A stretch of DNA of 64,000 nucleotides. Source: Chthoniobacter flavus (GTDB lineage Bacteria > Verrucomicrobiota > Verrucomicrobiia > Chthoniobacterales > JACTMZ01). The stretch lies in the NCBI GenBank assembly GCA_945878135.1, contig CAMDUL010000002.1:79349-143348 (forward strand), given 5' to 3'. Below, piece after piece: positions 4,165-62,288 of the stretch; position 1 is the first letter of the stretch, and each line of letters opens with the position of its first letter. The translations under genes were made by a program, and so were the position numbers. The notes below the pieces were generated by a model. That model worked only from the letters and a program-made list of their open reading frames with translations. It was not told the DNA's origin and did no database searches.

Positions 4165-7304
<3,140 letters not shown>

Positions 7305-38285: not shown

Positions 38286-38699
38286 GTGGCACGGGAAAAA
38301 AAACAGCGCATCGCCACGGACGCCGCACCGGAGCTGCGGACGAATCCCTTTGCCGCCCTCGAAATCCAAGGCCGCGAATCCCAAAAAGGTAGGGACACGC
38401 GGCCCGCGTGTCCGGCTCGACACCAACGGCCGAGCGAGCCGCTCGGCCCTACCTCCACCGTACGCCTCCTCCTGCGCCGCTCGACCGCCCACCGCGGCGG
38501 CAAAACCGTCCTCGTCCTCGAAGGATTTTCCCCCGCCTGGAACGAAGCCAAGTTGGGCGACCTCCTGCGCGAATTGAAAGCCTGCCTCGGCTGCGGCGGT
38601 CAAATCAACGCCCGCACGATCGAAATCCAAGGCGACCAACCCGACCGTCTGCAACCCCTGCTCGAATCCCGCGGCTTCGCCATCAAACGCGGTTGGTGA
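38286..38699 (+). CDS. yciH: translation initiation factor SUI1/eIF1 family (YciH-like), carrying a 22-aa repeat-encoded insertion
   Basis: The SUI1 core 'VRLLLRRSTAHRGGKTVLVLEGF...LRELKACLGCGGQINARTIEIQGDQPDRLQPLLESRGF' is present. The gene has a GTG start. Residues 35-56 are encoded by the 66-nt element at 38388-38453. Confidence 0.8.
   Translation: MAREKKQRIATDAAPELRTNPFAALEIQGRESQKGRDTRPACPARHQRPSEPLGPTSTVRLLLRRSTAHRGGKTVLVLEGFSPAWNEAKLGDLLRELKACLGCGGQINARTIEIQGDQPDRLQPLLESRGFAIKRGW
38388..38453. repeat. 66-nt double-hairpin palindromic element, copy 1 (inside yciH, in frame)
   Basis: The element reads GGTAG-GGACACGCGGCCCGCGTGTCC-GGCTCGACACCAAC-GGCCGAGCGAGCCGCTCGGCC-CTACC. Both 21-nt modules are perfect 9-bp stems with 3-nt loops. 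Confidence 0.9.
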
Positions 38700-45255: not shown

Positions 45256-46266
45256 TTGCCTCACTCTTGGGGTGAGTCCGCCCGGATCGACAAGTTGTTT
45301 TCTCTCAACCTTCAGTCCTCAACTTCCCGCGCGCTCCCCGCGGCACTCGCCTGCGAGACGTCCCGCCTCGCGCGGGAATCCAACCTCTACCTCGGCACGT
45401 CCTCGTGGAAATACGAGGGTTGGCTCGGACAGATCTACGACGAGCAACGCTACCTCACGCGCGGGAAACTCTCGACCAAACGCTTCGAGACCGAGTGCCT
45501 CGAGGAATACGCGGAGATTTTCCCCTCGGTCTGCGTCGATGCCGGCTACTACCGGTTCCCCTCGGAAAAATACCTCACCAACCTCGGCGCGCAGGTGCCG
45601 GACGGATTCCGCCTGAGCTTCAAAGTCACCGACGAAATCACGGTCAAAAAATTTCCCAGACTCGACCGTTTCGGCGACCGCGCCGGCACGGACAACGCAC
45701 ATTTCCTCGACGCCAAACTTTTCATCGACGCGTTCCTCGGCCCTCTGTCCCCGCATCGCCAAAAAACCGGCGTCCTCATCTTCGAATTCTCCGCGTTTTA
45801 CCCCACACACTTCGAACGCCTGCGCGACTTCATTGCCGTGCTTGATCATTTTCTCGGACGACTCCCCGCCGACTGGCAATACGGCGTCGAGGTACGCAAC
45901 GCCAAGTTGCTGCGCGCGGAATACTTCGACGTCCTCCGCGCGCACAATGTGGCCCACGTGTTCAACAGTTGGACAAAAATGCCGCCCGTTGACGAGCAGA
46001 TGGCCATGCCCGGGGCCTTCACCGCCGACTTTTTCGCCGCCCGCTTTCTCCTCCGCCCCGGCCGCGCCTACCAGCAGGCCGTCGACAGCTTCCAGCCCTA
46101 CGGTGAAACCAAAGAAAAAAACGAAGAAGCCCGCGCCGCCCTTCGCTCCCTCATCAAGCGCAGCGTGACCCGTCCCACCGCCCGTCCCAGCTACGCCTTC
46201 GTCAACAACCGCCTCGAAGGAAACTCGCCGAACACCATCGCCGCCGCTTTGGACGTAAAAATGTAG
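45256..46266 (+). CDS. DUF72 (UPF0759) family protein
   Basis: The sequence 'LYLGTSSWKYEGWLGQIYDE' has the DUF72-typical 'GTSGW.Y..W' N-terminus. The true start is uncertain and probably downstream of 45256. Confidence 0.75.
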   Translation: MPHSWGESARIDKLFSLNLQSSTSRALPAALACETSRLARESNLYLGTSSWKYEGWLGQIYDEQRYLTRGKLSTKRFETECLEEYAEIFPSVCVDAGYYRFPSEKYLTNLGAQVPDGFRLSFKVTDEITVKKFPRLDRFGDRAGTDNAHFLDAKLFIDAFLGPLSPHRQKTGVLIFEFSAFYPTHFERLRDFIAVLDHFLGRLPADWQYGVEVRNAKLLRAEYFDVLRAHNVAHVFNSWTKMPPVDEQMAMPGAFTADFFAARFLLRPGRAYQQAVDSFQPYGETKEKNEEARAALRSLIKRSVTRPTARPSYAFVNNRLEGNSPNTIAAALDVKM

Positions 46267-46322
46267 CGGCGACGTCCACGTCGCCGGTTGTTTCAGCCGA
46301 TCCGTCGGCGGGGACGCCGACG

Positions 46323-47231
46323 CTACATCTTTGGAAGCAAAAACCGCAAGGCCACCGGCAAGCGCTTGGCCCACGCCTTCTCGTTGTGCTCGTCGCCCTC
46401 CCCCGGATTCCAAAGAAAGTCCTTTCCCTCAACGTAGCCCTGCTTGAGCAAGGCGTCGCGCACGGCCAACGCATCTTTCCAGTAGTCGCCGGTAAGGCTC
46501 CCTTTCTCCCGCGTGCCCATGTCCATGTAGATGCGCAGACCATCCTTCTTCGTTCCTTCCATCACCGCCTTGGTGAAATTCGGACTCGTCCAGAAAGCCG
46601 GCGAAAAAACACCAACCGCCCCGAAAACATCCGTGTTCAATCCCAGCCAGAGCGAAACGAGCCCGCCCATCGAGGAACCGGCCGCCACCGTGTTCGCCCG
46701 GTCCGGAAGCGTCCGGTATTTCCCGTCGATGGCCGGCTTCACTTTGCCGGCGAGAAAATTCCCGTAGTGGTCGCAGAGTCCCGGGCCGCGCGACGGGTCG
46801 CGCGGATTCGTGTCGCCCGGCGGCTGATATTCCGTGACCCGCGCATTCCCGAGATCCGCCTCGTTGTTCGGCACGGCCACAATGATCGCTTCGCGCACGC
46901 GGCCGGCCTTCATTTCTTCCGCCGCCGCATCCTCCGCGAACCAGCATCCGAAGGGTCCGCCCGGACGGAACACATTCTGCCCGTCATGGAAATAAATCAC
47001 CGGATACCGCTCTTCTCCTTTGTCATAGCCCGCAGGCAACCAGACCCGCACCTCGCGCGAGGGAATCGAAGCATCATCCGACTCCACCAGCAACGTCTCG
47101 ATCCTCCCACCCGCGCAAGCATTCACCGCCAACAAAAGCAGAACCTGGAGCGTCAACAGCCTGTCCGTCCGCTTGCGGATCCCCGGCCACGGCACTACTC
47201 TCGTGCCAATTCCCAAAAGCGTTCGGGCCAT
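46323..47231 (-). CDS. secreted alpha/beta-hydrolase 'putative esterase' family (enterochelin-esterase/CE1-like)
   Basis: The sequence 'YPVIYFHDGQNVF' and the nucleophile elbow 'AAGSSMGGLVSL' are present. The start is chosen at 'MARTLLGIG...' (47231), which has a signal-like region. The track's earlier start at 47279 lies inside the repeat element. Confidence 0.8.
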   Translation of the reverse strand: MARTLLGIGTRVVPWPGIRKRTDRLLTLQVLLLLAVNACAGGRIETLLVESDDASIPSREVRVWLPAGYDKGEERYPVIYFHDGQNVFRPGGPFGCWFAEDAAAEEMKAGRVREAIIVAVPNNEADLGNARVTEYQPPGDTNPRDPSRGPGLCDHYGNFLAGKVKPAIDGKYRTLPDRANTVAAGSSMGGLVSLWLGLNTDVFGAVGVFSPAFWTSPNFTKAVMEGTKKDGLRIYMDMGTREKGSLTGDYWKDALAVRDALLKQGYVEGKDFLWNPGEGDEHNEKAWAKRLPVALRFLLPKM

Positions 47232-47240
47232 GCTCCCCAA

Positions 47241-47306
47241 GGTAGGGACGAGCGGCCCGCTCGTCTGCTCTTTTCCCAACGGACACGCGGGTTGCGTGTC
47301 CCTACC
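47241..47306. repeat. 66-nt double-hairpin palindromic element, copy 2 (9 nt upstream of esterase start)
   Basis: The element reads GGTAG-GGACGAGCGGCCCGCTCGTCT-GCTCTTTTCCCAAC-GGACACGCGGGTTGCGTGTCC-CTACC. Confidence 0.9.
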
Positions 47307-47695
47307 CTCCCGAGTAACTCGAAGTGTTTTGAGGCACCGACGCTCATAGACCGCCGCTACAATTTTTTGTCGAGGTGTAGCGGCGCTCTATGAGCGTCGG
47401 TGCCTTTCCCTCTTTGCAACGAGAGTAGCCCCAGTTACTCCCAAACCACACCCGCCCACGTGCGGGTTCGGGGACTCCCGAGTAACTTGAAGTGTTTTCG
47501 CGCAGCGACGGTCATATCAGTTGGCTTCGCTTTGCTTCAGCCTGTCTCGCCAAGCCTCGGCTGACGCGCCGCGACAAGCTTTCGTCGAGGTGTAGCGGCG
47601 CTCTATGAGCGTCGGTGCCTTTCCCTCTGGCAGGGACTGGTGACCCCAGTTACTCCCAAACCACACCCGCCGCGCGCGGGTTCAGGGACTCCCTA
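47307..47695. repeat. non-coding block of two tandem repeat units (about 168 and 218 bp) containing a 30-bp inverted repeat
   Basis: Three segments recur with only a few substitutions. Segment 47307-47330 recurs at 47475-47498. Segment 47369-47413 recurs at 47584-47627. Segment 47431-47479 recurs at 47645-47693. In unit 1 the arms 47332-47361 and 47376-47405 form an inverted repeat matching at 29 of 30 positions. Confidence 0.85.
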
Positions 47696-47718
47696 ACGCA
47701 AGCAACTTGCCACGGCAG

Positions 47719-47771
47719 GGATCGCTGGCCTCTGAGCCCGTAGGGCTCCACGAGCCGGAGGCCAGCGATCC
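47719..47771. other. nested perfect hairpin
   Basis: The outer stem GGATCGCTGGCCTC (47719-32) / GAGGCCAGCGATCC (47758-71) is a perfect 14 bp. It encloses an inner hairpin GAGCCC-GTA-GGGCTC (47734-48). Confidence 0.7.
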
Positions 47772-47835
47772 GCACCAACGACCCTTAACTCGGAATATTT
47801 GTCATCACACCCATTCTGTGGTTTCGTCTCTCCGG

Positions 47836-48063
47836 ATGAGCGCCGCCGGAGTCATGAATCTCGCCAAGCAGCTCCCCGAAAAGGAGGTGCTCGACTTGGC
47901 GCGGCTGCTCGACGCATGGACTGCCGCTATGGTTGATCAAAAACTCGAAGCTGCCGTTCAATCCGGCGCTTTCGACCAAATGGCGGCCGATGCCCTGCAA
48001 GAGTTGGAGAACGGGAAGACCATTCCTCTCGATGAAGTCCTCCACGACCCGCGCCTTTCGTAA
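47836..48063 (+). CDS. hypothetical small protein (75 aa), weakly antitoxin/addiction-module-component-like
   Basis: This is the protein-like part of ORF 47707..48063. It reads 'MSAAGVMNLAKQLPEKEVLDLARLLDAW...ALQELENGKTIPLDEVL'. The resemblance is only by pattern, and there is no partner toxin gene adjacent. Confidence 0.35.
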   Translation: MSAAGVMNLAKQLPEKEVLDLARLLDAWTAAMVDQKLEAAVQSGAFDQMAADALQELENGKTIPLDEVLHDPRLS

Positions 48064-48127
48064 GCTACGAAAGGCAAGTGTGGCAAAAGATTGACCTCCG
48101 CGGCCCGTCCACGTGCCATCAACCCCG

Positions 48128-48997
48128 ATGAACCCGTGGATCCTCGCTGCCCGCCCGCGCACCCTCGGTGCGGCTGTCGTGCCGGTGGTGACTGGTTGCG
48201 CCCTGGCCTTCTCTGCGGGTGGATTCGATCCGTTGACGTCCGCGCTCGCCCTGATTTGCGCCATCCTCATCCAAGTCGCGACGAACTACTTCAACGACGC
48301 CATCGATCACGCCAAAGGTGCCGACACCGCGGAACGGCTCGGACCCGTCCGCGCGACCAGCGCCGGATTGCTCTCGCCGCGCGCCATGATGACCGGCGGC
48401 GCCGTGTGCCTGATCCTCGCCGGTGTTCTCGCCATCCCGCTCGTCCTGCACGGCGGATGGCCAATTCTCGTGCTCGGCATTGTTTCGCTTTTTCTCGCCT
48501 ACGCCTACACCGGCGGGCCCTTCCCGCTCGCCTATCTCGGACTCGGTGAAATCTTCGTCGTTCTCTTTTTCGGAATCATCGCCGTGGCCGGAACATTTTA
48601 CCTCAACACGCTTGCGCTTTCCTCCGCCGCGCTGCTCGCCGGTCTGCAAATCGGACTGCACTCCAGTGTCCTGCTCGCGGTGAACAATCTGCGCGATCTG
48701 GAAACGGACCGTGCGGCGAACAAGCGGACACTGGCCGCGCGGTTCGGTCTGACCTTTGCCCGGCGCGAAAATGCATCGCTCGTCATCGCGCCTTTCGTCC
48801 TCGGTCTTCTCTGGCTGCCGCTCGGATATTTGTGGGCTTTTCTCCTGCCGCTCATGACGCTGCCACTCGCTTGGTGGTTGGCGCGCGCCTGCCTCGAGGC
48901 CGCGCCCGCGCGCGAAACCAACCGGCTTCTGGCCCAAGCCGCCGCATTGCACGCCGCTTTCGGACTCCTCCTTGCTCTCGCCTTCCTCCTGCCGTGA
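48128..48997 (+). CDS. menA: 1,4-dihydroxy-2-naphthoate polyprenyltransferase
   Basis: The sequences 'WILAARPRTLGAAVVPV' and the UbiA motif 'NYFNDAIDHAKGAD' are present, together with a second Asp-rich region 'NNLRDLETDRAANKRT'. Confidence 0.9.
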   Translation: MNPWILAARPRTLGAAVVPVVTGCALAFSAGGFDPLTSALALICAILIQVATNYFNDAIDHAKGADTAERLGPVRATSAGLLSPRAMMTGGAVCLILAGVLAIPLVLHGGWPILVLGIVSLFLAYAYTGGPFPLAYLGLGEIFVVLFFGIIAVAGTFYLNTLALSSAALLAGLQIGLHSSVLLAVNNLRDLETDRAANKRTLAARFGLTFARRENASLVIAPFVLGLLWLPLGYLWAFLLPLMTLPLAWWLARACLEAAPARETNRLLAQAAALHAAFGLLLALAFLLP

Positions 48998-50016
48998 AAA
49001 TTTGGACGCACCACTACACGCTGGAGCCCGGATCCGATCCGGCCCGCGCCGCGCGTAGTCCGCGTCACGGTGCACTTCTCCGCGTGGAGTTCGACGATGA
49101 AACCATCGGCCATGCCGACCTGCATCCGTGGGAGGAATTCGGCCACGCTCCCTTGGCCGAGAATCTTGGCTCGCTGCGCACGGACCAACCGACACCCTTG
49201 GCCGACCTTGCCGTGCGTCACGCGCGCATCGATGCCGCCGCACGCCGAGCCGGCCTTTCGCTTTTCGACGGAATCCCCGAAGTGCGCAGCCATGCGCTCT
49301 TCACCAATTGGGCCGCTGCGCCGCGCAGCGCATTCGAAGAGTGCGTCGTCGATGGCTACACCGCGGCCAAACTCAAGATCGGACATGATCCCGAACGCGA
49401 ATCCGCCGCACTCAACGCCCTCGCCGGTTTGCCGCTACGCTGGCGTTTGGATGCCAATGCCCAAGGTAGGGACGAGCGGCCCGCTCGTCCGCTTGATCCG
49501 ATCCGGACGAGCGGGCCGCTCGTCCCTGCCCATTTCCTCGCGCAATTGTCCGCCGGCATCCTCCGAAATATCGAATTCCTCGAAGACCCCACACCCTACA
49601 ATAGCGCCGCATGGTCCGCCCTGAGCGAACGCGAAAAAATTCCCCTCGCCCTCGACTGGGAACTTCCCTCCTCCCCGCCGCCATGGCCCGGCGCGCGAAT
49701 CCTCGTGATCAAACCCGCCTCGCAAGACGCCTTCCCCCTCGCCCTCGCCGCCGCGCACGCCGGGATGGAAATTGTCGTTACCCACAGCATGGACCATCCC
49801 CTCGGCCAAGCCGTCGCGCTCTGGACCGCCATGCGTTTACGCCAGCGGCATGGCGATCTCGTCCGCGACGGCGGCCTCCAAACCAAGGGACTTTACCAAG
49901 CGGACGAATTCAGCGCCCAAATCCGGACCCTCGGACCGCACACCGCGCCGCCCCCGGGCACGGGCTTCGGTTTCGACGGGTTGCTCGGACGACTCCCATG
50001 GAAAACCCTCCCATGA
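48994..50016 (+). CDS. menC: o-succinylbenzoate synthase (enolase superfamily), carrying a 22-aa repeat-encoded insertion
   Basis: The motifs 'KLKIG', 'RLDAN' and 'IEFLEDP' are present, with later acidic/lysine motifs. The gene lies directly after menA, with its GTG start overlapping the menA stop (GTGA). Assignment of the subfamily relies partly on this context. Confidence 0.75.
   Translation: MKIWTHHYTLEPGSDPARAARSPRHGALLRVEFDDETIGHADLHPWEEFGHAPLAENLGSLRTDQPTPLADLAVRHARIDAAARRAGLSLFDGIPEVRSHALFTNWAAAPRSAFEECVVDGYTAAKLKIGHDPERESAALNALAGLPLRWRLDANAQGRDERPARPLDPIRTSGPLVPAHFLAQLSAGILRNIEFLEDPTPYNSAAWSALSEREKIPLALDWELPSSPPPWPGARILVIKPASQDAFPLALAAAHAGMEIVVTHSMDHPLGQAVALWTAMRLRQRHGDLVRDGGLQTKGLYQADEFSAQIRTLGPHTAPPPGTGFGFDGLLGRLPWKTLP
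49465..49530. repeat. 66-nt double-hairpin palindromic element, copy 3 (inside menC, in frame)
   Basis: The element reads GGTAG-GGACGAGCGGCCCGCTCGTCC-GCTTGATCCGATCC-GGACGAGCGGGCCGCTCGTCC-CTGCC. Confidence 0.9.
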
Positions 50017-50363
50017 ACCCGCCGCCGCCCCCGGTCGTCTGGTGGGTGATTTGGGGGGCCATCATCGCCGCCTTCTTCGTGATTTTCGGTGCCTTCGAAG
50101 CCGCAGGGCAGGAGGTGGCCGTTCCGCCTGTCGCGGCCCTGCTCGCGCTCGCTCCCTTCGCCGCCTCGGCCGTGTTGCGCTTTCTCTGGCTCCCCCGCGC
50201 CGCGCGCGCGAAGAAGTTCCCGCTCTTCGTCACCGGACTCGCTCTGGCCGAAGCCGGAGGTTTCCTTGCTCTCCTTGCCGGCCCGCCGTGGAAAACGCCC
50301 TTGGCCGCCGCGGCCATCGTGATGATGATCATCCACATCCCCGCTTTCATCCGTCGCGATTGA
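50013..50363 (+). CDS. hypothetical small membrane protein
   Basis: The protein reads 'MNPPPPPVVWWVIWGAIIAAFFVIF...' and has 3-4 TM segments. Its start overlaps the menC stop (ATGA). Confidence 0.5.
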   Translation: MNPPPPPVVWWVIWGAIIAAFFVIFGAFEAAGQEVAVPPVAALLALAPFAASAVLRFLWLPRAARAKKFPLFVTGLALAEAGGFLALLAGPPWKTPLAAAAIVMMIIHIPAFIRRD

Positions 50364-62003: not shown

Positions 62004-62070
62004 GGTAGGGACACGCGGCTCGCGTGTCCGTTTGGAACGGATGCGGACGAGCGGGCCGCCCGTCCCTAAC
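62004..62070. repeat. 67-nt double-hairpin palindromic element, copy 4 (intergenic, upstream of dgkA)
   Basis: The element reads GGTAG-GGACACGCGGCTCGCGTGTCC-GTTTGGAACGGATGC-GGACGAGCGGGCCGCCCGTCC-CTAAC. It has one stem mismatch and one mismatch in the terminal repeat. Confidence 0.85.
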
Positions 62071-62102
62071 TTGGGAAACGACGGGATGGCGCCGCTACAG
62101 GC

Positions 62103-62288
62103 TCACTCTTGGCCTTGCGGCGGGAAGAACTCCGGCGGGTTTTCCGCGGCGCCGAGGGGTTTGCTTTCCGTCTTTTCCTCGGCCGCTTTCTTCTTGTCGT
62201 AATCCGGGATACTGACCGAGGGCGGGATGCGTTCGCAGGAGACCGCGACCAGTGCAACGACAGCGAGGAGGACGGAAAAATATTTCAC
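62103..62288 (-). CDS. putative small lipoprotein (61 aa)
   Basis: From a GTG start, 'VKYFSVLLAVVALVAVSCERIPP...' gives a signal peptide with lipobox (AVSC), followed by a charged tail. It lies directly downstream of the KH-domain gene. Confidence is low. Confidence 0.4.
   Translation of the reverse strand: MKYFSVLLAVVALVAVSCERIPPSVSIPDYDKKKAAEEKTESKPLGAAENPPEFFPPQGQE

Follow-up and report, generated by a model that had tools for sequence, protein, structure and literature searches.

An in-frame palindromic segment of a verrucomicrobial menC gene as a probable inverted pair of GTAG-tagged REPs

Can a palindromic repeat enter a conserved metabolic gene and be read through as protein, and to what kind of element would it belong? 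This question is raised by menC, the gene for o-succinylbenzoate synthase (enolase superfamily), in a 64,000-nucleotide stretch of DNA from Chthoniobacter flavus (GCA_945878135.1, contig CAMDUL010000002.1, positions 79,349 to 143,348; hereafter the window, whose numbering is used throughout). The public contig derives from an ENA metagenome assembly, and its gene call places an intact menC at 48994..50016 on the plus strand (340 aa), within an open reading frame (ORF) extending over 48832..50016 (+). Window positions 49465-49530 read GGTAG-GGACGAGCGGCCCGCTCGTCC-GCTTGATCCGATCC-GGACGAGCGGGCCGCTCGTCC-CTGCC, a segment of 66 nt that starts on a codon boundary, has the conceptual translation GRDERPARPLDPIRTSGPLVPA and corresponds to MenC residues 158-179. 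An earlier note on this DNA had described this architecture and its in-frame position in an intact menC, and the sequence is exactly as written there. The segment is very probably an inverted pair of GTAG-tagged repetitive extragenic palindromes (REPs), a REP dimer similar to a REPIN (REP doublet forming a hairpin), belonging to a family spread through the Verrucomicrobiota.

REPs are non-autonomous elements whose single-stranded DNA hairpins are recognised and moved by a single-copy HUH/Y1 transposase, the REP-associated tyrosine transposase (RAYT), the gene of which is flanked by the same REPs. In each half of the menC segment, GTAG precedes a G+C-rich hairpin with a stem of 9 bp and a loop of 3 nt, and the two halves are inverted with their tags facing outward. 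REP unit 1 (49465..49491, +) comprises the GGTAG tag, a 21-nt hairpin with the stem GGACGAGCG/CGCTCGTCC and the loop GCC, and a final G; its nine codons encode GRDERPARP, and the same 27 nt stand alone as a singlet in the menC orthologues of loci L189 and L191. REP unit 2 (49504..49530, −) is a near reverse complement of unit 1, with a single tag mismatch (GGCAG for GGTAG); on the plus strand it reads C + GGACGAGCGGGCCGCTCGTCC + CTGCC and its nine codons encode RTSGPLVPA, and in menC orthologues it ends in the canonical CTACC. The intervening codons CTT GAT CCG ATC (49492..49503, +; L-D-P-I) are probably part of the native menC loop, to judge from their resemblance to insert-free loops, and not an element spacer. 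The 66-mer has a folding energy of -38.6 kcal/mol (z = -11 versus shuffles) in a window of 64.6% G+C, and its 21-nt module has five matches in the 64-kb window at three or fewer mismatches, against 0 expected from 100 shuffles.

The segment is one of many copies. The three further doublets that had been listed at 38388, 47241 and 62004 are all real, the first of them in frame (GGT AGG GAC), and many additional genomic copies were found across the Verrucomicrobiota. A scan of species-representative genomes with GGTAGGGACRMGCGGSYCGC matched at least 116 stretches; nearly all of the matches listed were verrucomicrobial (Chthoniobacterales, Chthoniobacter, Udaeobacter, Opitutaceae, Verrucomicrobiae, Limisphaerales and Luteolibacter), with one from Kiritimatiellae in addition. 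Matches in Hydrogenophaga and Nannocystis had no palindrome and were discarded as chance matches. Copy density was four doublets in the 64-kb window and up to five exact matches per 5 kb in some contigs of metagenome-assembled genomes (MAGs). From the fetched loci and the window together we extracted 56 doublets, 37 of which were exactly 66 nt long; the four window copies and the 56 doublets had G-GTAG ahead of the hairpin, with the rare variants GCAG, GTGG and GTTAG.

These copies define a canonical element, GGTAG-GGACGAGCGGCYCGCTCGTCC-GCTCTCTTTCCAAC-GGACACGCGRGCCGCGTGTCC-CTACC, in which a 'GAG' hairpin and a 'CAC' hairpin form a heterodimer around a conserved spacer. The element occurs in both orientations and usually has an additional conserved flank, AGGTTCTGAG, next to the CAC hairpin. 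The GGTAG...CTACC frame with a spacer of 14-15 nt, as first proposed, captured only a part of this element, which is further defined by its pairing of a GAG with a CAC hairpin, its conserved spacer and its extra flank. Doublets of the 60- and 76-nt classes bear other stems, for example GGACGGCTG, GGTCCGCTG and GGACGCCTC. Across the 37 copies of 66 nt, a two-hairpin model was 98.5% paired and 9 of its 18 pairs had changed on both sides, a result reached in none of 500 shuffles; the paired stem substitutions that had been reported between window copies are borne out on this larger set. A single long hairpin was rejected as the conserved structure, being 87.1% paired in canonical heterodimers and worse than shuffles, while the menC homodimer alone does fold as one long hairpin. 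Two inverted REPs with a short spacer, the arrangement of a REPIN, are present; a doublet and spacer conserved as a unit are found in the canonical intergenic copies, not in the menC copy. Neither a target-site duplication nor a target motif was found at the 37 canonical copies, only a purine preference before GGTAG and the extended inverted flank. A miniature inverted-repeat transposable element derived from an insertion sequence with a DDE transposase was ruled out, no direct repeat flanking these 37 copies. A search of 47000-50100 against Rfam 15 returned no family at its gathering score, only sub-threshold generic hairpins (microRNA precursor models). In the alignment of doublets (A3, columns 17/50), the middle loop bases of a doublet's two hairpins covary, being T-A in 16 copies and C-G in 11; a lineage effect of the loop variants GCT and GCC is the probable cause, and inverted duplication would give the same pattern.

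RAYT genes flanked by REPs of this architecture are present in relatives. An ORF at L087 (2616-3089) scored 98 bits and one at L024 (194-658; the isolate Luteolibacter algae KCTC 22040) 85.5 bits on NCBIfam NF047646, the REP-associated tyrosine transposase model with a cut-off of 80, and their Pfam Y1_Tnp matches were weak. GGTAG + GGAC...GTCC REPs lie on both sides of each ORF: GGTAG-GGACGCCTCGCCGAGGCGTCC units border the L087 gene at either end, and the L024 gene lies between one doublet and a tandem doublet array. Two more RAYT loci (L192 and L193) have the same inverted REP flanks. The protein collection held 335 RAYT homologues, many of them named 'REP element-mobilizing transposase RayT' by JGI; the RAYTs found are short, about 150 aa, and verrucomicrobial. 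This demonstrates the REPtron arrangement for this REP architecture in the phylum, for the stem variants of the relatives and not for the GAG/CAC stems, and a RAYT would presumably have moved the copies described here. The earlier note had treated the segment as a selfish palindrome of a family it did not recognise; the first part stands, and the family is recognisable as a GTAG-tagged REP pair of the RAYT/REPtron system. In the L024 array (1-2900), 12 or more REP doublets recur about every 108 nt; they are made of GGCCGACCG-stem and GGACGYGCG-stem hairpins, and the array resembles a cluster of bacterial interspersed mosaic elements.

The host gene itself is intact. The MenC product scored 65 bits on Pfam OSBS_N and 183 bits on NCBIfam NF047905 (MenC), the latter below the 500-bit equivalog cut-off of that model, and menC overlaps the end of an upstream UbiA-family menA. 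Residues K126/K128, D153, E197, D221 and K240 (340-aa numbering) are invariant in 70 orthologues, including insert-bearing ones, and the OSBS N-terminal domain, the barrel with its KxK, D, E, D, K set and the men-gene context all assign the protein to MenC. An AlphaFold2 model had a mean predicted local distance difference test score (pLDDT) of 73.6; residues 158-175 fell below 50 and formed coil between the strand at 149-153 and the helix at 177-183. Accordingly, the modelled insert is a disordered loop; it lies on the catalytic, C-terminal face of the barrel, where length varies naturally. In each orientation two of the three frames through a REP unit are open and the third holds a TAG, as is directly evident from the DNA. 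Since the units are 27 nt (nine codons) long, two of three frames are open and the receiving loop is disordered and length-variable, insertions would be read through as GRDERPARP and RTSGPLVPA with the catalytic residues kept.

The orthologous site in relatives is found both occupied and empty. Among 120 menC orthologues (69-100% identity), protein lengths cluster at 320-322, 325-328 and 340-343 aa, and all of these differences map to the loop after WRLDAN. Reading the DNA of 40 loci distinguished six states of this loop: a short native loop, DANA-SAGTES-FL (L123, L125, L129); a loop of 12-13 residues, SFTTGGESIDT (L030, L124, L135); a single REP, AAFQ-(GGT AGG GAC GAG CGG CCC GCT CGT CCG)-SEPIDHFL (L189, L191); the doublet as in the window (also L118/119, L186, L187 and L188, and decayed in L185); a deletion remnant, CAA GGT ACG GAC GAG / TGG CTC, left by an in-frame deletion of 57 nt (L190); and a 45-nt insert, GAGGACGCCGCCGCTACATCATGTAGCGCCGCCGTCCCC followed by a GGCGGC repeat (L122, L134, L147). 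More distant orthologues, at 60-67% identity, have AAFT-LDSL-TD-WL or similar and are insert-free, so that the search for empty sites that had been proposed succeeded in close and distant orthologues alike. Excision of the segment had been thought to leave an uninterrupted sequence; the frame does stay open, but the ancestral sequence is not restored, insert-free orthologues having 7-13 residues between DAN and FL, not 'AQH'. Using pairwise identities in place of a menC tree, we found that the doublet-bearing protein P0003 is 94.9% identical to P0050, which has the short, empty loop, and 81.6% identical to the window protein, and that P0012, also doublet-bearing, is 91% identical to proteins with the 45-nt insert. 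Loop state is decoupled from overall similarity.

The same loop has also received another element. The 45-nt in-frame insert (GGEDAAATSCSAAVPGG), which occurs in many menC orthologues, consists of two head-to-head units of a second GTAG REP family, in which GTAG-CGGCGRCGTCCNCGYCGCCGG precedes TYGTTTC. Members of this second family were also seen in the window at 46255-46300 and 62085-62110, in L122 at 1985-2030, and in L134, L147, L189, L190, L013, L030, L037 and L091. The ACG ACC GGC GGC codons of the 12-residue loop match the flank of this family and may, from that match, be its footprint.

How the 66 nt came together can be approached by removing the units. When the two nine-codon units are taken out of L188, which has an intact upstream flank, AF-R-LDSI-Q-FL remains and aligns with the outgroup loop AF-T-LDSL-TD-WL; the window allele treated likewise gives Q-LDPI-H-FL, two upstream codons having been lost, and the singlet allele minus its one unit gives AF-Q-SEPI-DH-FL, which matches perfectly in length. 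Within the doublet spacer, the 12-nt core (CTT GAT TCG ATC) agrees with native loop DNA at 8-9 of 12 positions, whereas 72 canonical spacers agree at about 4 of 12 on average and 7 at most; the native loops compared were CTG GAT TCG CTG (L-D-S-L) of L139 and GAA TCG ATC of the 12-residue loop type. The menC copy has two GAG hairpins, near-exact inverted copies of each other, around a non-canonical spacer. Because the spacer resembles native codons, both hairpins are of the GAG type and the outer flank is absent, we read the segment as a composite: the 66 nt seem somewhat more probably to have arisen in two steps through a singlet, as a 27-nt REP, four native codons and a 27-nt inverted REP, than as one unit. 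We infer the following order of events. REPs would have landed in the MenC loop between barrel strand 3, which carries the first metal-ligand Asp (RLDAN), and the next helix, the ancestral loop having been AF-T-LDSL-TD-WL. A first insertion would have produced the singlet that L189 and L191 retain; the arrival of another copy, inverted and 12 nt downstream of the first, would have given the alleles of the window, L118 and L186-L188; and in some lineages an in-frame partial deletion (L190) or decay (L185) may have followed.

The alternatives differ widely in how well they account for these data. A complete 66-nt REPIN may instead have inserted into menC in one step, its spacer and second hairpin diverging later under selection on the peptide and the single-REP alleles being secondary. 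The exact canonical length with a 14-nt spacer, as in 37 of the 56 doublets, speaks for this course, as does the appearance of the canonical doublet with its conserved spacer as the spreading unit. It is nevertheless rather unlikely: the singlets of L189 and L191 continue with a native E-P-I-D-H-F-L that the doublet lacks and so cannot have arisen from it by simple deletion, L188 without its units aligns with the outgroup loop, the spacer match to native loops exceeds anything among the 72 canonical spacers, and the two hairpins are of one type, unlike the canonical GAG/CAC heterodimer. It is extremely improbable that MenC simply has an ordinary lineage-specific loop of 22 residues here, with DNA that is palindromic by chance. 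The length of the loop after RLDAN does vary among orthologues; yet across the phylum both unrelated genes and intergenic DNA contain this nucleotide sequence, no match to the hairpin module is expected by chance in the window, and the segment is absent from distant orthologues and from relatives that are, loop apart, 95% identical. Empty sites and further genomic copies refute a native loop. An assembly artefact, or a pseudogene with an untranslated segment, is hardly more credible, despite a MAG as the source and the capacity of palindromes to cause assembly errors. The segment recurs with the same in-frame structure in independent ENA, JGI, NCBI and Logan assemblies, the ORF is intact with all catalytic residues present, and even the deletion derivative, with 57 nt lost, is in frame.

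Several observations weigh against the interpretation of the segment as a RAYT-mobilised REP pair assembled in two steps and read through in MenC. A scan for HUH/Tyr motifs and a tblastn search with two verrucomicrobial RAYTs found no RAYT in the 64-kb window, and none of the four RAYT loci (L024, L087, L192, L193) is flanked by GAG or CAC stems, their flanking stems being GCCTC, GCGCG and GGCCGACCG. The menC copy differs from the canonical doublet as a homodimer with a different spacer and without the AGGTTCTGAG flank. Under the two-step model it is a coincidence that its units span the canonical 66 nt end to end; coincidence is plausible because only in-frame spacings in a short tolerant loop are viable, and the total may otherwise hint at a preferred distance for the second unit. 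A neighbour-joining tree of menC is star-like with the loop states interleaved, so that gain and loss are inseparable from allele exchange. Translation of the insert, as predicted from the ORF, would give the protein 18 extra REP-encoded residues.

The REP arms of the intragenic copies are more strongly conserved than the coding DNA around them. In doublet-bearing menC genes the 52 nt of the REP arms are 94-100% identical, against 64-82% for the coding flanks and 55-78% for third positions, and in L118 and L188 all 66 nt are identical in genes that are otherwise 71% identical. A second host, yciH/SUI1, has the doublet in its N-terminal linker: YciH orthologues of 138 aa contain it, those of 128 aa have a P/S/T-rich linker instead, and those of 129 aa have a different REP encoding GTGVPPV. 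In 58 doublet-bearing YciH proteins, the residues encoded by opposite sides of the hairpin-2 stem are T/V in 18 and P/G in 37 at one pair of positions and S/L in 36 and G/P in 20 at another, with no mixed pairs, and the underlying DNA forms perfect stems in L065 (GGACGAGCG/CGCTCGTCC), the window (GGCCGAGCG/CGCTCGGCC) and L194 (GGCCGGGCG/CGCCCGGCC). Stem pairing is clearly maintained inside coding sequence. The compensatory pattern in yciH may reflect a few events transmitted by shared ancestry, and conversion from other copies could give the same result. The different single REP, encoding GTGVPPV, was seen in the yciH linker of L195 (501-890) and in the YciH proteins P0331, P0338, P0339, P0346 and P0350; two REP families therefore colonised the same linker, as in menC.

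Such conservation raises the possibility that intragenic REPs are domesticated, being kept by host-level selection for a role of the DNA or RNA, such as a binding site for RAYT or another protein, mRNA stability or processing, translational pausing or a supercoiling target, and not merely tolerated. The excess identity of the REP arms over the flanks, the switching of yciH residues only in compensating pairs with three perfect DNA stems, and the persistence of the doublet in many lineages of menC and yciH are all consistent with it. We consider it unlikely, as gene conversion or re-seeding, allele exchange (L118/L188) or a few inherited events give the same pattern, sister lineages lose, decay or replace copies (L185, L190, P0326), and the host genes are unrelated. 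A broader proposal, to which we likewise assign a low probability, is that the hairpins are kept paired either by selection or by an active process linked to RAYT or gene conversion, that this forces the compensating residue switches (T/V to P/G and S/L to G/P), and that a REPIN is built in place when a single REP recruits another, inverted copy at canonical spacing. If the hairpins are actively kept, the protein loop would be a record of the REP-RAYT mechanism and would indicate a nucleic-acid-level function or homing inside genes.

Much of this picture has precedents. Di Nocera, De Gregorio and Rocco (2013, BMC Genomics 14:522; PMC3733652) recognised two superfamilies of REPs by their tags, GTAG and CGTC, and, in its retrieved passages, their paper describes GTAG REPs of Opitutus terrae with their RAYTs and numerous intragenic REP dimers, whose hosts include SUI1 (Oter_4188) and dnaE2. 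The O. terrae families GTAG-17 to GTAG-20 resemble the elements reported here in phylum, in the terminal GTAG with a short G+C-rich stem-loop, in occurring as singlets and inverted dimers, in the REP-flanked RAYT genes and in the many copies within ORFs, with dimers encoding 20-30 residues (PMC3733652, same passages). The GTAG-19 peptide GRDARAT given there resembles GRDARPARP in L117, and its GTGVPPV is the yciH peptide of L195. The host lineage here is Chthoniobacterales, not Opitutus. In-frame GTAG REP dimers in Verrucomicrobia, even with the SUI1 host family, were thus already published in 2013, as those passages state, and the menC case is a good new example, not a new phenomenon, its interest lying mainly in evolutionary detail. 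A text search of the supplements of PMC3733652 did not return the GAG/CAC stems or the 66-nt heterodimer with its spacer, which may be identical to consensus families in Figure 1 of that paper; menC is absent from the hosts listed in its retrieved passages, and those passages contain neither an allelic series at one site nor compensatory stem changes in coding sequence.

REPINs and RAYTs of Pseudomonas fluorescens and Escherichia coli (Bertels and Rainey 2011, PMC3116915; Nunvar et al. 2010, PMC2817692) share with the present system two inverted REPs with a short spacer and the capacity to form a hairpin, a single-copy REP-flanked Y1/HUH transposase as the presumed mobiliser, and the absence of target-site duplication. 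They differ in being described as extragenic and mostly gammaproteobacterial, whereas the canonical doublet here is a heterodimer that fits two hairpins (98.5%) better than one long hairpin (87.1%) and the RAYTs are verrucomicrobial and about 150 aa long. Rickettsia palindromic elements (RPEs; Ogata et al. 2000, cited in PMC3733652) are likewise, by that account, in-frame palindromes that add a surface peptide to still-functional genes. The same passages of PMC3733652 equate the short RPE-4 and RPE-6 with intragenic REPs, and the intragenic repeats of R. conorii, RPE-4/RPE-6, are there CGTC-tagged and belong to an unrelated alphaproteobacterial family, in contrast to the GTAG tag here. Membership in the RPEs was ruled out by the GTAG tag, the Verrucomicrobiota host and the unrelated sequence, and the behaviour alone is RPE-like; the earlier comparison with RPEs as selfish palindromes that colonise ORFs and conserve hairpins rather than peptide is supported in that sense. 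REP/RAYT systems are usually regarded as extragenic and mostly proteobacterial, and the locus adds a clean verrucomicrobial case in which a single, codon-resolved site shows an allelic series comprising the native loop, the single REP, the doublet, an in-frame remnant and a second-family dimer. The series can be used to study REP dimer formation, rates of REP gain and loss and the absorption of REPs by proteins, and leaves the basic picture published in 2013 unchanged. It also carries a warning for annotation, in that inserts of 9-22 G/R/P-rich residues in verrucomicrobial proteins (GRDERPARP, RTSGPLVPT, GTGVPPV) are REP-encoded.

The remaining window copies illustrate both settings of the element. 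The doublet at 38388..38453 (66 nt) lies in frame in the N-terminal linker of yciH/SUI1 (coding sequence 38286-38699, +), is read as GRDTRPACPARHQRPSEPLGPT and combines a CAC hairpin with a GGCCGAGCG-stem hairpin in the phase GGT AGG GAC. In the canonical intergenic doublet at 47241..47306 (66 nt), a GAG hairpin is separated from a CAC hairpin by the spacer GCTCTTTTCCCAAC. This doublet is upstream of an esterase gene (46323-47195, −), at a distance of 46 nt, and L030 has an orthologous copy at the equivalent place. A further intergenic doublet at 62004..62070 (67 nt), with a CAC hairpin, a 15-nt spacer, a GAG-like hairpin and the end CTAAC, is flanked by two minus-strand genes.

Among the extracted doublets most are intergenic, at least 35 of the 56 having no ORF that passes through them. 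Several ORFs that do pass through doublets were discounted as coding on account of R/P-rich, junk-like translations. Convincing in-frame doublets occur in menC, in yciH (the window, L065 and many orthologues), in a Zn-dependent alcohol dehydrogenase gene (L093) and in the N-terminal linker of a family-4 uracil-DNA glycosylase (L117), and coding doublets mostly use the frame GGT AGG GAC (G-R-D); the N-terminus of nth (L069) and a dinB/imuB-dnaE2 junction (L075) are ambiguous. At this junction (L075, 140-205), a REP doublet joins a Y-family polymerase gene with IMS domains to a PHP-domain dnaE2-like gene, and one open frame spans all three. The alcohol dehydrogenase of L093 has about 50 extra residues at the REP site (…TRRSSLGHPMGEGGPGEAGPGEGKSAPVSQP + REP doublet; 6877-6936 and about 90 nt upstream), and the excess over the 60-nt doublet suggests further inserted or decayed repeats. 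Beside the 47241 doublet, a third GTAG-tagged palindrome forms two repeats of about 170 nt (47307-47450 and 47475-47690, with hairpins at about 47330-47405 and 47545-47625) and also occurs in L145 and L066. Each of these repeats has a long hairpin, GGCACCGACGCTCATAGACCGCCGCTACA...TGTAGCGGCGCTCTATGAGCGTCGGTGCC, as a head-to-head dimer, and their matches to Rfam microRNA models are sub-threshold.

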